Assembly: GCA_963827655.1 (NCBI GenBank)
Contig: CAWHCF010000044.1
Location: 32,001-96,000, forward strand
Origin: an uncultured Acidobacteriota bacterium
GTDB lineage: Bacteria; Acidobacteriota; UBA6911
Direction of reading: 5' to 3'
Length of the DNA: 64,000 nucleotides
The notes under the pieces are model-generated. The model searched no databases. It saw only the letters and a program-made list of their open reading frames with translations, and was not told the DNA's origin. Shown one piece after another: positions 21,295 to 27,134 of the stretch. The translations under genes were made by a program, and so were the position numbers. The stretch's first letter is position 1. Every line of letters starts with the position of its first letter.

Positions 21295-22863
21295 CTAGGC
21301 TGAGACCCCTGCGGGGGCCTCGCGTATCGGAATCCGCAGCGTAAAGGTGCTCCCGTGTCCAGGTTCACTTTCGACCAGGACTTCCCCTCCGTGCATCTCT
21401 GCCACGTGCTTGGTAATCGCGAGACCGATGCCGCTTCCCCTGGTTTTCAGGACGGCGGCGTTGCTACCCCGGTAGAATTTCTCAAAAATCCTCTGCTGCT
21501 CGCTCCCCGGTATTCCCAAACCTTGATCCGCAACCGAGAGATCTATATAGCCATCATTCTTAATCACGCTCACGGTTATCTGCTTGTGATCCTCCGAATA
21601 CTTCACTGAATTATCGAGAAGGTTGAAGAACGCGAGGGTCAGGGAGTGGGCATCGGCCAGAGTCTCCGGCAGCGGATCTTCGAGCCGGCTCACGAGCTGG
21701 AATCCATCCTTCTGAATCCGGTAGCGGTAGGTCTCCAGTTCCCGCTTGACCAGATCGGCAATGTTGATTTTCTCGAAGTGTCTTGTCTGCGCCCCCCGCT
21801 CGAGCCGCGCGAAGTCCAGCAGATTGTTGATCAAACGGCTCATCCGATCGCTCTCTTTGTAGATGATCCGATAGTACTCAAGTTTGGATTCGTCATTCTT
21901 GACTCTGCCGGTGGTCAGAATCTCGCTGAACATCCGAATCAGAGCCAGGGGCGTCTTCAATTCATGGCTGACATTACCTATGAAGTCCGCCTTCAGCTGT
22001 ATGAGCTGCCGCTCTCGACGAACCACAAAATAAATGATCACCAGACTCAAAAAGATCAGAGAAATACTCATGATGATGAAAAAGAAATTGGTCCGTCGCT
22101 GCACTCGCGCGACCCTCTCCATCTCCGAGTAGTTGCGGGGAACCACCTGAAGCAGCCATTTGTAGAAGGTGCTGGGAAAGCGCGATTCGTGGAAGTACTT
22201 GACCCGGTCCAAGGGCGGGCCCGACACTCCATTGTTTTCATAGTCCACGACGCTGACGTAATACACGGAACGAAGATCTTTGAGGTACCTGTCGAGCAGA
22301 GCAAGGATCTTGCCGTGATTCATTTGAAAGCAGACCAGGATCTTCTCGCCGCGCCGGTTCTCCTTGATCACGTAGGAAGCGAAGAAGTAGTCTTCTCGAC
22401 GTTCTTTATGCAGGTGATTGGTCTCGTCGGGGCGGAGGCGGTCCAGATTCAGCTCCCTGGTCTTGAAACTCCGCATGAATGCGGAATAGAGATCCTTGAT
22501 CCCGGGGCTCCAGGCGGGATACAGAAGATTTCCGTTCAGCGAAAGGAACCAGACCTGGTCGACGCCTAAATCGGCTTTCTTGATCGCGTCGTTCACCTCC
22601 CGCCAGCGTGACTGGTCGTTCACGTCAGCCATGTTATAGAGGCTGCGGTCGTTGTCGATGATCTTCTGCTCGATGCGATCGACTTCCCTTTCCACCAGCT
22701 TGACATTGCTTCGTATCAGGCTGTCTTCCACAACATTTTCCCTGCCAACGGTGTACTTGTAGCTGAGGATGGTCAAGGTTGCCGTAGAAGCGCCGATCGC
22801 AACGATTGCGATCATAACTGCGGTCCGGTTGTAGAAAACGGGTGTCTTCATCGAGGGCGTCAT
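21295..22863 (-). CDS. Sensor histidine kinase
   Basis: Two TM segments flanking a periplasmic domain; [35 protein letters not shown]. Confidence 0.95.
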
Positions 22864-23034
22864 TTTAACTTATTTAGTTCTTCGTGTCTTCGTGCTAAGT
22901 GGGCCGACCATCACTCCACCACCAAACCCGGGATGCGAAATGCCACCGGTACAAGCTTGTTTACAGTGCCGACAGCAGATTGATAGAGTGAATTTTTGCT
23001 GTCGGGACGCAATGAACTTTACCGAGAGGGCTTT

Positions 23035-23802
23035 ATGCAGATCCAAGGCAGTACGTTCTTGATTAGCGGCGGCAGCTCAGGTCTGGGCGCCGCCTGTGTT
23101 CGCACCCTCGCACGATCGGGAGCTCGCGTAGTAATCGCCGACCTGAACAGTGCCGGGGGAGAAGCGCTGGCTGTGGAATTTGGTCCAGAGGTCCATTTCG
23201 TTCAGACCGAGATCACGGATGAAGCAAGCGTGCAAAATGCCGTTGACACTGCAGTGCAGGGATTCGGCCCTCTCCGAGGTGTCGTCAACTGCGCGGGAAT
23301 CGGAAATGCCGAACGAGTGATAGGCAAGACCGGGCCGCATTCCTTGAACACGTTCTCCAAGGTCATTAGCGTAAATCTTATCGGAACTTTCAACGTGCTT
23401 CGTCTAGCCGCTGCAGCTATATCGCGAGCCGAACCTCGAACGGGCGGCGAGCGCGGCGTCATCATCAACACCGCCTCGGCCGCAGCCTTTGACGGTCAGA
23501 TCGGTCAGGCGGCCTACTCCGCGTCAAAAGGCGGGATTGTTTCCATGGCCCTTCCAATCGCGCGCGAACTGGCGCGGTTCGGAATCCGGGTCGTGACCAT
23601 CGCGCCTGGAATCTTCGACACTCCCCTCCTGGCTAAACTTCCGGAGCCGGCCAAGCGGTCTCTGGGAGAACAGGTTCCTTTCCCTCGACGTCTCGGACGC
23701 CCCGAGGAATTCGCCGTCCTCGTCGCGCATATCATTGAGAACGAAATGCTCAACGCCGAGGTGATCCGCCTTGACGGTGCGCTGCGCATGGCTGAGAAGT
23801 AG
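23035..23802 (+). CDS. SDR 3-hydroxyacyl-CoA dehydrogenase (HSD10-like)
   Basis: [37 protein letters not shown]. Confidence 0.92.
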
Positions 23803-23889
23803 CAGTAGGCAGCAGGCGGAAAAGTTTCCCTGATCTGGTTTCCTGGTGTTACGGCGGTAGAACCACAATCCGCATTCTGAAATTCGCAA

Positions 23890-24124
23890 TGGGAAGGGGT
23901 GGGAGGCCCGAATCTGACGACCGGGCCTCATCTTCACAGCAGGCTTAAGGTAGGAGCGGTCCCGCTCAACGTGACCGCTTTCAATGGTGGGTTTTTTGCT
24001 CGCGCTTCGTTAAAAAATGTTATCAGTGCAACCTTCGCCAAAAGGATCACCCGAGTGAAGAGTAATCTCTTAACTCCAGAATAAAACCCCTACGGTTTAC
24101 AGGGATGCTTGACGTGCCGCGCGT
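23890..24124 (-). ncRNA. Candidate sigma54-dependent small RNA
   Basis: Lies downstream of a -24/-12 motif in a convergent intergenic region; two strong 3' hairpins (AGCGGTC..GACCGCT and GAGGCCCG..CGGGCCTC); no ORF with a good RBS. Confidence 0.45.
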
Positions 24125-24135
24125 AATAAATATAC

Positions 24136-24150
24136 GCATCACGCATGCCA
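24136..24150 (-). promoter_or_regulatory. Sigma54 (-24/-12) promoter-like motif
   Basis: Minus strand TGGCATGCGTGATGC has GG-N10-GC spacing; IHF-like AATCAAGGGTTTT at 24235-24247 and AT-rich TGT..ACA elements at ~24319-24348 lie upstream. Confidence 0.6.
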
Positions 24151-24493
24151 ATGACGGCGGTGGGCCAAGTTTTGGTGCAGGACTGATCTTTTTTGATGAA
24201 CGACAGGGCAGGTTCAAAGCCCGGGCGAAGTCAGAATCAAGGGTTTTCACTGTTGAGATGACGTGACTTACGGAGAATCACGCGTCGAACGCAGGACCAG
24301 TGTCGCGAAAGCTTGATCATGTGAATTTTTAACAAAGAGTTAACACAAGATCGTCACTTCACAACGAAAGTGAGTCGAAAAAGTTCAAGGAAGCGGGGAA
24401 ACTTTCCCGGCATTGCCTCAGAGTCCGCTCACCTTCCGATTGGTCAGGCAAGATAGAGACAGGATGCCGGGACGAAGAGTTCGAATGACTCTA

Positions 24494-25428
24494 CTAACCC
24501 ATTCTCCGCCGCTGCAACTCGTCGAAGGTGACGGCGAGAACTATCACGGAGCCAATGATGATCTGCTGAAGGAATGGGGAAACACCCAGCAAGTTACACC
24601 CATTGCTGAGAAGGCCCATGATCAGAGAACCGACAATCGTCCCGGGGACAGAGCCCTGGCCACCGTTCAAGCTGCCGCCCCCAATCACGACAGCCGCAAT
24701 TACGCGCAGTTCATATCCCTCACCCGCAGTCGGCTGCCCGGTGACCAGCCTGGCGGCCTCAATCATTCCAGCCCATCCGGTCAAGGCACCCCCCAACGCA
24801 TAGACCACGAGGGTGTATTTCCCAAGGGGTATTCCTGAACAGCGCGCCGCCTCGGAGTTACTGCCAATGGCATAGCTGTAGCGTCCCAATCTTGTGTACT
24901 TCAGAATGAAATGAACCAGTACGGCGACTGTGAGCAAGAACAACATCGGTACCGGAATAACTCCCAGCACGCTACCCGTAGCGAGGACGCCGAAATCGCG
25001 GGTTAAGTTTGCCACGGGAATTCCTCCGGTCAGGATCAGTGTCAGGCCGCGATAGATACCCATGGTCCCGAGGGTTGCGATAAATGGAGGGATCTTCAGA
25101 GCGGTGATTGCGGCGCCATTGGTAAACCCGCAGACTGTGCCGACTAGTATCGCTCCCACAAGCGCAAGAGCTGTCGGAAGTTGAGAAGCAATAAGCATAG
25201 CCCCGCAAACACCGGCTAGTCCCACAATAGAACCGACCGACAGATCGATACCTCCCGAAGCGATTACGACCGTCATGCCGATCGCCATGATTGTGATCAC
25301 GGTGGTCTGGCGTACGACGGAGGACAGGTTATTTACGGTCAAAAAATAAGGAGAAGCTAGCGAGAGCGACAGGAATAGAACTGTGAGACTGATATAAGGA
25401 ATAAACCGCTTAAGGGTTTCTCGGCCCA
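24494..25428 (-). CDS. Sugar ABC transporter permease (RbsC-like)
   Basis: GGIDLSVG, IPPFIATLG, AIGSNSEAA, IAAVVIGG; start at MGRETLKRF. Confidence 0.93.
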
Positions 25429-25643
25429 TGACCCTGACTTGCGTAAAAAGAGAGACCAGCCCTGTTTTCGAAGCAAGATTTCCCACTCGTGGATTCCTGC
25501 TCCCTTGGAAAGCATCCACCGGAGAGCTTCCACGCCAGGAACCGCGCCGGCAACCCACGCGCATGACGCGCAGGCGGGCGCGAACGAAGCCGTTGTGCCT
25601 TCCTGTCCGGCTCTTTGATTCCGACCGCGGAGAGATCTCCGGT

Positions 25644-27134
25644 CTATTGCACCAGGGCTGCATGCCGCATGATTTCTTCCTGGCTGGTGCGCTGCGTTTC
25701 CAATTCAGCCACAAACTCGCCGCGGCGCATAACTGCAATCCGATGGCTCATTCCCAGAAGCTCCAGCAGATCGGAAGAAATCATCAGGATCGCCCCTCCC
25801 CCGCCCACAATGTCTTTCATCAGCTTGTAGATTTCGGCACGAGCTCCGAGATCGACCCCCTGGGTGGGTTCATCGAGAATAAGAACACCGGAGCCGGCGA
25901 ACAGCCAGCGTGCAATGAGAGCCTTCTGCTGGTTTCCTCCACTGAGGCGGTAGACCGGTTCACTCTCCGAGCGCGCCCGAATATCAAGCTTCCGGATGAG
26001 GCTTCGGCAGGCGCGCGCTTCATCCTTCAACCTCAGAACGAAGCCCCGCTCCACTCTCTCCAACGCTGCGATGGATATATTGTGGACGAGTGACAAGTGC
26101 GGGAAGAGGCTGGTGATTTTACGATCCTCTGTCAGATAGGCGAGACCGGCCTCGATCGCGTCCCCGCTACTTCTGAAAGCTACCTCGCGGCCGCGCAATA
26201 GAACGGAACCTTGGTCAGGAGGGTCCAGTCCAAAGATGCCCTGAGCCAGAGCGGTTCGTCCGGCGCCCACCAAACCCGCCAACCCCAACACTTCCCCTCG
26301 ACGTAAGAAGAACGAAATGTTGCGATATTTGCTTCCTTTACTCAGGCCCCGAACTTCCAGCGCTGTATCGTCGGTGGGGGCGGCGCGCGGAGGGTAGAGA
26401 TCCTTTATTTCGCGACCCACCATGTAGCGAACAATATCCATGGCGGTGACCGCGGCGAATTCGCCTGAAAAGACGCGGCGCCCGTCACGAAGAATCGTGA
26501 CGCGGTCGGCGATTCGAGGAAGCTCCTCCATTCGGTGCGAAATGTAGACCACGGCCATGCCACGGTTTCTGAGATCGCGGATTATGCGAAACAGCTCTTC
26601 GCTCTCGGCCTGAGATAGCATCGAGGTAGGCTCGTCCATGACCACGACCCTGGTAGCAACCGTCAGGGCTCGGGCGATTTCGACCATTTGTTTCTCCGCC
26701 GTCGTGAGGCGGACGACTCGGACGGACGGGTCCAGTGAAAAGCCGTGGCGGCGAAGCGTTTCCCGGGCCGCTCGAGTCATTTCGTTATTCTTGAGAATTC
26801 CCAAACGCCCGGTCGGTTCGGTTCCCAGATAGATATTTTCGGCCACGGTGAGGTGCGGCGCGAGGGTATGCTCCTGAAAAATCATGCTGATTCCGGCCCG
26901 GCGCGCGTCGTGGGGTTGTGAGATATGGATTTCCTGGCCGAGCATTCGCATGGAGCCGCCGTCGCGGGAGTAGACACCATTCAGGATCTTCATCAGTGTC
27001 GATTTACCCGCCCCGTTCTCTCCCACGAGCGCGTGGACTTCGCCTGGCTGCAGTGTCAGCTCAACATCATCGAGAACGAGATTCCCGCCGAATGATTTCC
27101 GGATTCCTTTCATCTCGAGAAGGGGGGCTGGCAT
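25644..27134 (-). CDS. Sugar ABC transporter ATP-binding protein (RbsA/MglA-like)
   Basis: GENGAGKST, MDEPT, YISHR, LSGGNQQK. Confidence 0.95.
   Translation of the reverse strand: MPAPLLEMKGIRKSFGGNLVLDDVELTLQPGEVHALVGENGAGKSTLMKILNGVYSRDGGSMRMLGQEIHISQPHDARRAGISMIFQEHTLAPHLTVAENIYLGTEPTGRLGILKNNEMTRAARETLRRHGFSLDPSVRVVRLTTAEKQMVEIARALTVATRVVVMDEPTSMLSQAESEELFRIIRDLRNRGMAVVYISHRMEELPRIADRVTILRDGRRVFSGEFAAVTAMDIVRYMVGREIKDLYPPRAAPTDDTALEVRGLSKGSKYRNISFFLRRGEVLGLAGLVGAGRTALAQGIFGLDPPDQGSVLLRGREVAFRSSGDAIEAGLAYLTEDRKITSLFPHLSLVHNISIAALERVERGFVLRLKDEARACRSLIRKLDIRARSESEPVYRLSGGNQQKALIARWLFAGSGVLILDEPTQGVDLGARAEIYKLMKDIVGGGGAILMISSDLLELLGMSHRIAVMRRGEFVAELETQRTSQEEIMRHAALVQ

Follow-up and report, generated by a model that had tools for sequence, protein, structure and literature searches.

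A previously uncatalogued small RNA gene of soil Acidobacteria behind a predicted σ54 promoter

A gap between convergent genes and its conserved RNA

The window, that is, the whole stretch of DNA analysed here, comprises 64,000 nucleotides from an uncultured Acidobacteriota bacterium. At positions 23803-24493 it contains a gap of 691 bp flanked by two convergent genes: a short-chain dehydrogenase gene on the left (22996..23802, plus strand) and an ABC permease gene on the right (24494..25738, minus strand). The latter closes a sugar-type ABC transporter operon, whose genes for an ABC ATPase and for a periplasmic binding protein of the sugar type lie beyond it. Gene calls and domain matches agree with a preliminary description of the locus, which had placed a convergent-gene gap beside a sugar ABC operon, and all of the features that it listed were located in the sequence where it had put them. 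A histidine kinase gene (HisKA, HATPase_c; 21295-22863, minus strand) lies about 1 kb past the 3′ end of the RNA described below.

Comparison with related genomes supports the conclusion that this gap holds a real, previously uncatalogued small RNA (sRNA) gene of soil Acidobacteria, encoded on the minus strand. When the 691-nt gap was compared by BLAST with 61 related genomes, positions 23898-24010 alone, which span both hairpins described below and a neighbouring stretch, were matched, in three genomes of the same family; the other ~480 nt, promoter motif included, found no match at that sensitivity. A covariance model (R1) delimits the conserved core at 23893..24015 on the minus strand (110.7 bits) and detects the element in 31 of the 51 genomes of one Acidobacteriota family, representing 6 of its 11 genera. 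Up to six copies per genome are present in genus g2, and one in the genome of the window. Outside the family, R1 gave marginal matches only, in 3 of 86 other genomes of the class (E 3e-4 to 8e-4). An exact-pattern scan of genome contigs returned 78 loci, among them five strong members, all in Acidobacteriota/Acidobacteria records, and one weak member (16.5 bits); the remaining loci were rejected as chance matches in G+C-rich genomes. Four further members (L166, L155, L179 and L151) were recovered from the 36 loci of a metagenome scan. Just outside the RNA, positions 23862-23890 gave matches of 28-29 nt at 93% identity in G051 and G047, two genomes of another family, with E values of about 1e-4 to 6e-4 that may be due to chance.

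No Rfam 15 family matched in the 64-kb window at gathering thresholds, which leaves the candidate RNA uncatalogued. With E values up to 10, the region 23700-24600 showed chance-level matches only, and a search of the loci of eight relatives returned nothing matching the RNA.

The preliminary description had proposed a structured, gene-free transcript of the minus strand that ends in two stable hairpins. Folding 23895-24124 as a single sequence gave no information for either strand (z -1.03 and -0.99). For nine homologues, the RNAalifold consensus reaches -35.5 kcal/mol on the minus strand as compared with -13.8 kcal/mol on the plus strand. The minus-strand fold is rich in G-U pairs, and the same pairs read A-C on the plus strand; because of these pairs in the stems, we assign the RNA to the minus strand. 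In an alignment of 31 members, which was fitted to the covariance model and with which independent MAFFT and RNAalifold runs agree, 94.9% of the pair cells are standard and 11 of the 17 pairs have changed on both sides. None of 500 shuffles reached the observed values, and when the partners were displaced by 1-3 columns, no more than 56% paired. The two hairpins (23955-23979 and 23903-29) proved to be conserved and covarying, and the consensus fold, the G-U pairs and the comparison with relatives bear out the proposed transcript.

These data also speak to a very improbable reading, according to which the conserved segment is a 3′ untranslated region or terminator of the dehydrogenase gene on the plus strand, formed by the hairpins and the T run at 23991-23996. 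A terminator-like site followed by T6 is indeed called at 23975-23990 on the plus strand, and one RNA contig (23664-24018) joins the end of the dehydrogenase gene and the core. However, the minus-strand G-U pairs would become C-A pairs, the plus-strand consensus fold is weak, and in relatives the element is found beside unrelated genes in both orientations. The plus-strand hairpin and T6 (23975-23996) are the complement of the AAAAAACCCACC tract of the sRNA and could also end the dehydrogenase transcript.

The only reading frame, as the first inspection had noted, is a 38-codon GTG frame at 23934..24050 on the minus strand. We give hardly any credence to the idea that the transcript encodes a 38-residue peptide starting from the GTG at 24050: the frame is open, but it has no Pfam match, its start region upstream of the core is not conserved, and it overlaps an RNA whose core hairpin loops differ in length among homologues. 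We judge it to be non-coding.

Predicted promoter and candidate enhancer

Promoters recognized by σ54 carry GG at -24 and GC at -12, with 10 bases between, in the context TGGCAC-N5-TTGC. An orphan promoter of this type had been pointed out in the gap, where the GG-N10-GC motif TGGCATGCGTGATGC is found at 24150..24136 on the minus strand. The complete -24/-12 element, TGGCATGCGTGATGCG (24135..24150, minus strand), agrees with 9 of the 12 consensus positions. Within the window this motif is not above chance when taken alone: TGGCAYN6TGC has one match where 1.01 are expected from shuffles. Sites scoring at least 9/12 are expected 0.09 times per 420 nt, which we counted against the promoter.

Conservation argues for the promoter. 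The motif TGGCA[CT]N6TGC occurs no more than 700 nt upstream of the RNA, on the RNA strand, at all eight loci outside genera g2 and g9, a count that includes the window, from whose own site the strict motif was defined, and that corresponds to about five independent lineages because L166 is near-identical to the window and G009 and G014 share a genus. These loci (the window, L166, G010, G009, G014, G002, L155 and L179) each provide at least 391 nt of upstream sequence; L151, with 52 nt, was left out of the count. The strict motif is expected by chance about 0.005 times per locus, and it was found on none of 35 opposite strands, at none of 24 g2 loci and at neither of two g9 loci. In genera g10, g11 and g3, the RNA strand has a canonical σ54 motif ahead of the hairpin array. 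On this strand, G014 and G009 carry TGGCACCGAACGTGCT within otherwise divergent flanks, G002 carries TGGCACGAAACCTGCA, and the metagenome members L155 and L179 carry TGGCATGCCACATGCT and TGGCACGCGATATGCT, respectively. The G010 site, TGGCACGGATGATGCT, is homologous to that of the window, and site and flank together resemble the window's TGGCATGCGTGATGCG-TATAT. In L166, a 96%-identical relative, the site is identical to that of the window, and in strain X1 the element is unchanged among the differences listed. The genome encodes RpoN (PF04552, 196 bits) and at least 11 full-length enhancer-binding proteins (PF00158, 11 matches above 220 bits). The proposed σ54 promoter is borne out by its conservation in relatives, not by its frequency in the window. 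The RNA appears to be switched on by RpoN, probably together with stress genes.

This mode of control is not family-wide, because g2, the largest genus, lacks the motif and has a σ70-like promoter instead. Another conserved unit stands in front of the RNA at 22 of the 31 family loci, all of them from g2; it consists of ATGrGTAyTTCTACyCAT, 8 nt, AATGrGTAyTTGCaCGAATTG, about 17 nt and a TTTAAT-like element. It includes a 7-4-7 palindrome (ATGrGTA-N4-TACyCAT) and a second half-site box fused to a TTGnnn -35 element. From this architecture we read the unit as two putative operator-like boxes with a σ70-type -35/-10 pair; it looks like a dedicated transcription-factor operator that would stand in place of the σ54 promoter. 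A profile of the g2-type promoter (nhmmer, 22 sequences) gave no credible match in the window (lowest E 0.29, at another place) and no match in its genome. In g2 (L026, L030, L034 and 19 further loci) the unit is located about 150-350 nt upstream of the core. The two g9 loci, L045 and L047, are weak members (35-48 bits) with GCGCGACCCUGC in place of GCGCGAGC, and neither has a σ54 motif. They lie ~375 nt (L045) and ~490 nt (L047) downstream of an apparent LuxR-type response-regulator gene and have the box CTGGATTTCrCGGGATTG in common, at about -290.

Upstream of the σ54 element, an IHF-like site and TGT..ACA dyads had been described as further promoter parts. The IHF-like site AATCAAGGGTTTT is present at 24235..24247 (plus strand), between the promoter and the palindrome discussed below, and agrees with the IHF consensus WATCAANNNNTTR at 12 of 13 positions. 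It is nevertheless weak: WATCAANNNNTT has two matches in the window versus 2.44 expected, and the 3′ TT of the site is not kept in L166. An AATCAA sequence occurs ~100 nt upstream of the G002 promoter, in both paralogous regions of that genome. The dyads, at ~24319-24348, are likewise present, but they have suffered one substitution and a 1-nt deletion in L166, and no counterpart was seen upstream of the RNA in the other genera compared.

A more likely enhancer is the palindrome GGGGAAACTTTCCCGG at 24395..24410 (core GGGAAA-N-TTTCCC), which lies ~245-260 nt ahead of the -24 element and is a candidate upstream activating site where an enhancer-binding protein would bind. The strict palindrome has only seven sites in the 8.18-Mb genome. 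In five of the eight loci (the window, G010, G002, L155 and L179), GGGAA(A)-N-(T)TTCCC is positioned 190-260 nt before the -24 element; G009 and G014 carry a one-mismatch variant, the palindrome of L166 is unchanged but cut by the contig end, and that of strain X1 is unchanged among the differences listed.

Two further palindromes of the genome, on contig C49, are located 140 and 90 nt upstream of σ54 motifs scoring 10 and 11 of 12, respectively. The distance from palindrome to promoter is 246 nt in the window as opposed to 90-140 nt at these two operons, a difference that we counted against the assignment. The operon at C49:222211 (G000:C49:222211-224650; L127 6209-8633) encodes DUF5670, DUF3309, DUF2383, ferritin/Dps-like and YflT proteins, of which those of DUF5670 and DUF3309 are small membrane proteins. 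At C49:228095 (225100-228095; L127 9179-12110), the genes encode a DUF883-like protein (sub-threshold), Holin-X, DUF3618 and a weakly YtxH-like protein. Judging from their families, we take the products to be putative stress or stationary-phase proteins, and the two operons, each with palindrome and σ54 motif, to represent a candidate σ54 stress regulon. In four relatives, 6 of 15 palindromes have a site scoring at least 10 within 420 nt as compared with 0.41 expected, an expectation taken from the background of the window's genome; one of the six is the sRNA locus of G002. Because the same palindrome precedes the σ54 promoters of the stress operons, the RNA may represent the riboregulatory arm of this regulon. 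A paralogous region with palindrome, AATCAA box and σ54 motif is present in G002 (L144, G002:C23); no sRNA follows it there, and it leads to a ribosome-binding site and a 90-codon frame without Pfam match.

The transcript and its probable mode of action

From 5′ to 3′, the family consensus comprises CGAAGCGCGAGCAA, an A/C-rich linker, a 9-bp hairpin, an unpaired stretch and a G+C-rich hairpin. The best conserved stretch is CGAAGCGCGAGCAA (23996..24009, minus strand), which is unchanged in eight of the first nine homologues and shows single-base variants in a minority of the 31. A 2-bp stem capped by a GCGA tetraloop could form here; this helix (helix 1) never varies and is therefore neither supported nor refuted by covariation. 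Hairpin P2 (23955..23979, minus strand) contains nine pairs, seven of them with compensatory changes, and 98.2% of its cells are paired. It is followed by the conserved unpaired stretch CUCCUACCUUAAGCCUGCUGUGAAG (23932..23956, minus strand; family consensus UCCCGCC...AACCUGCUGCGAAC), a C/U-rich sequence that we infer to be a candidate base-pairing seed. The 3′ hairpin P3 (23903..23929, minus strand) is G+C-rich, covaries and is the putative terminator stem. The U run that follows P3 in most relatives is absent in the genome of the window (CCCACCCCUUCC).

Between promoter and core lies a predicted 5′ leader (24016..24124, minus strand), whose start is deduced from the promoter geometry. It contains a hairpin at 24106..24086 and the decayed counterpart of a hairpin that has a G-rich loop in relatives. 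In the relatives, one to four hairpins precede the core; the stem sequences vary from species to species without loss of pairing, the loops contain a conserved G-rich GAGUUAGGGGGGGACC on the RNA strand, and the G-loop hairpin is positioned 8-15 nt upstream of the core. A pairwise alignment of the window leader with that of G010 reveals little in common besides promoter and core. An intramolecular helix between GGAG/UUAAG of the leader and CUCC/CUUAAG of the core was considered and rejected, because the order of the segments forbids one antiparallel helix. In the G002 copy (L044 / L136), a segment of ~450 nt splits the G-loop hairpin from the RNA core. It is flanked by a 19-nt direct repeat, contains an open frame of ~80 codons, and may be an insertion or a dual-function variant.

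In close relatives, the part predicted to be promoter and transcript differs less than the sequence upstream of it. The comparison with L166 yields 20 differences for the 256 nt preceding the promoter versus 6 for the 251 nt from promoter to terminator, and the leader (24020-24108) shows no substitutions over 85 nt. The DNA contig of strain X1 has, among the differences listed, ~25 in 24028-24493, none in 24115-24160 and two in the core.

Expression was followed through assembled metatranscriptome contigs, which carry no information on strand or level. RNA-library contigs from three studies cover the core. Those of two studies stop at 24016 and 24018 with no loose ends, where a DNA contig continues, and the RNA contig of a relative (two differences over 23898-24034) runs upstream into different sequence with a G run. 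These ends give a weak hint of an RNA boundary at 24016-24018, ~106 nt past the start predicted at 24124. Positions 24035-24417 have no RNA-contig cover (X12, X17, X18), and missing cover is not evidence of absence. A terminator-like hairpin with UUUUAUU (24106..24086) directly follows the predicted start, which we counted against it. As a weak hint, the ends at 24016-24018 fit a processed 5′ end in an A/U-rich stretch better than a start at 24124; since this is the sole hinted boundary, the ~120-nt core may be a processed form.

The same ends could be explained by an adjacent promoter, for example the extended -10-like sequence TGATAACAT at 24025..24017, from which the core would be transcribed if the σ54 motif were inactive or irrelevant. 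The agreement of two independent studies on the boundary, a weak hint in itself, and the chance-level frequency of the σ54 motif within the window are in line with this explanation, which we regard as rather improbable. Transcription from TGATAACAT would start at ~24010, yet the contigs reach 6-8 nt further, and a simple σ70 scan found no site in 23500-24800. Relatives have the G-loop hairpin, and no promoter, 8-15 nt upstream of the core. The invariance of the leader (24020-24108) relative to L166 and the conservation of the σ54 motif across genera count against it as well.

We consider it probable that the gene specifies a trans-acting sRNA, transcribed by RpoN from 24150..24136 after activation through the palindrome, that acts as a base-pairing regulator. 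According to this model, RpoN polymerase would transcribe the sRNA from the -24/-12 element at 24150..24136, here and in sister genera, and an enhancer-binding protein on the palindrome at 24395-24410 would activate the promoter. The primary transcript, roughly 225 nt long, would begin at ~24124, end with the hairpin at 23929..23903 and probably be trimmed to the ~120-nt core with a 5′ end near 24017. The unpaired C/U-rich stretch would most likely pair with G-rich ribosome-binding regions of target mRNAs. Identity and regulation of the RNA are well supported, whereas its function as a base-pairing regulator is what we infer; this function is favoured because of the multi-copy habit of the family, the conserved unpaired C/U-rich stretch and the terminal hairpin. 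For Hfq, the genome gave a sub-threshold Sm-like match only (22.9 bits, cut-off 27 bits), and the window RNA has no U tail.

A sponge role had also been put forward in the preliminary description. That the same RNA, made from the same promoter, acts by protein sequestration seems unlikely to us. Such a function would suit the relatives, in which the number of hairpin repeats varies and the loops stay conserved, and it might explain why the core is conserved beyond what a simple seed needs. On the other hand, the window copy lacks the G run (the loop motif GGYCCCCCCCTA has no match in its genome) and its hairpin has decayed, several g2 copies are without the G-loop hairpin, and no CsrA gene that would support such a role was found (PF02599, no match in the 90%-complete genome).

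Regulatory setting and comparison with known systems

In several relatives, the RNA is neighboured by phosphorelay genes. The enhancer-promoter-RNA unit of G010, G014, G009 and L155 has, divergently upstream of it, an Hpt gene and then one or two stand-alone receiver genes; in L179 a receiver gene takes this position. None of these neighbouring receiver proteins has an AAA+ domain. In the genome of the window, the best-matching homologue fuses Hpt and receiver and is encoded on a different contig (C6), and the gene has neither palindrome nor σ54 motif there.

A tentative and, in our view, rather doubtful extension of the model would make the RNA the post-transcriptional output of an undescribed σ54 general-stress circuit, in which a phosphorelay (Hpt/receiver) would signal to an enhancer-binding protein on GGGAAA-N-TTTCCC and thereby to the stress operons and the sRNA. 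If true, this circuit would switch the operons for Dps/ferritin-like, YflT, DUF3309 and DUF883/Holin-X proteins together with the sRNA, a LuxU-LuxO-Qrr-like design reused for stress or dormancy. The variable-number modules with G-rich loops would then confer a sponge-like activity as well.

Acidobacteriota rank among the most abundant bacteria of soils. To our knowledge, gene regulation in this phylum is almost unexplored and none of its sRNAs has been characterised; the literature listings searched contained no paper joining Acidobacteriota, sRNAs and σ54. The locus provides a new, well-supported family of sRNAs together with its covariance model, a testable promoter/enhancer grammar with a small candidate stress-protein regulon, and a natural replacement of promoters (σ54 versus σ70-like) inside one RNA family. 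Together these would allow regulation in uncultured soil bacteria to be read from metagenomes and metatranscriptomes.

The sRNA family is new; the regulatory kind, a σ54-driven sRNA, is already known. In Vibrio, qrr1 lies beside luxO-luxU. The Qrr RNAs of this genus depend on σ54 and LuxO (10.1101/2021.07.01.450815). Like Qrr1-5, the family described here consists of short, often multi-copy sRNAs with a σ54 promoter, and as at qrr1, Hpt or receiver genes divergently adjoin the RNA in five relatives. Unlike Qrr, it belongs to a different phylum, has a different sequence and fold and no Rfam match, its adjoining receivers are without AAA+, and the Hpt-receiver gene of the window's genome lies elsewhere (C6).

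Repeated stem-loop modules are also known from NrsZ. This sRNA of Pseudomonas aeruginosa is σ54-dependent and processed (PMC4253122). NrsZ depends on NtrC and nitrogen, whereas the enhancer here points to stress-type operons, and the two RNAs have no sequence relation. GlmY and GlmZ of the Enterobacteriaceae have σ54 promoters, and their promoter type varies between related species (PMC3045617), just as it differs between g2 and the other genera in the present family. In contrast to GlmY/GlmZ, which act via RapZ and glmS, our family has a different structure and no Rfam match.

CsrB, RsmY and RsmZ carry repeated hairpins with GGA loops, and CrcZ has A-rich repeats. The hairpins repeated in tandem in the relatives, which vary in number and share a conserved loop motif, resemble these RNAs. 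Unlike in the Csr/Rsm sponges, the loops of the relatives are G7 and not ANGGA, CsrA was not found, and the copy in the window is without a G run.

Two non-coding RNA motifs of Acidobacteria, Acido-1 (RF01686) and Acido-Lenti-1 (RF01687), have been described (PMC2864571) and, as far as that report shows, these alone represent the phylum in Rfam. The RNA of the window differs from both, in that neither model matches the window. A sub-threshold match to Acido-Lenti-1 (24.3 bits, threshold 37 bits) is located at 1908-1953 on the minus strand of L005, ~300 nt from the RNA of G010.
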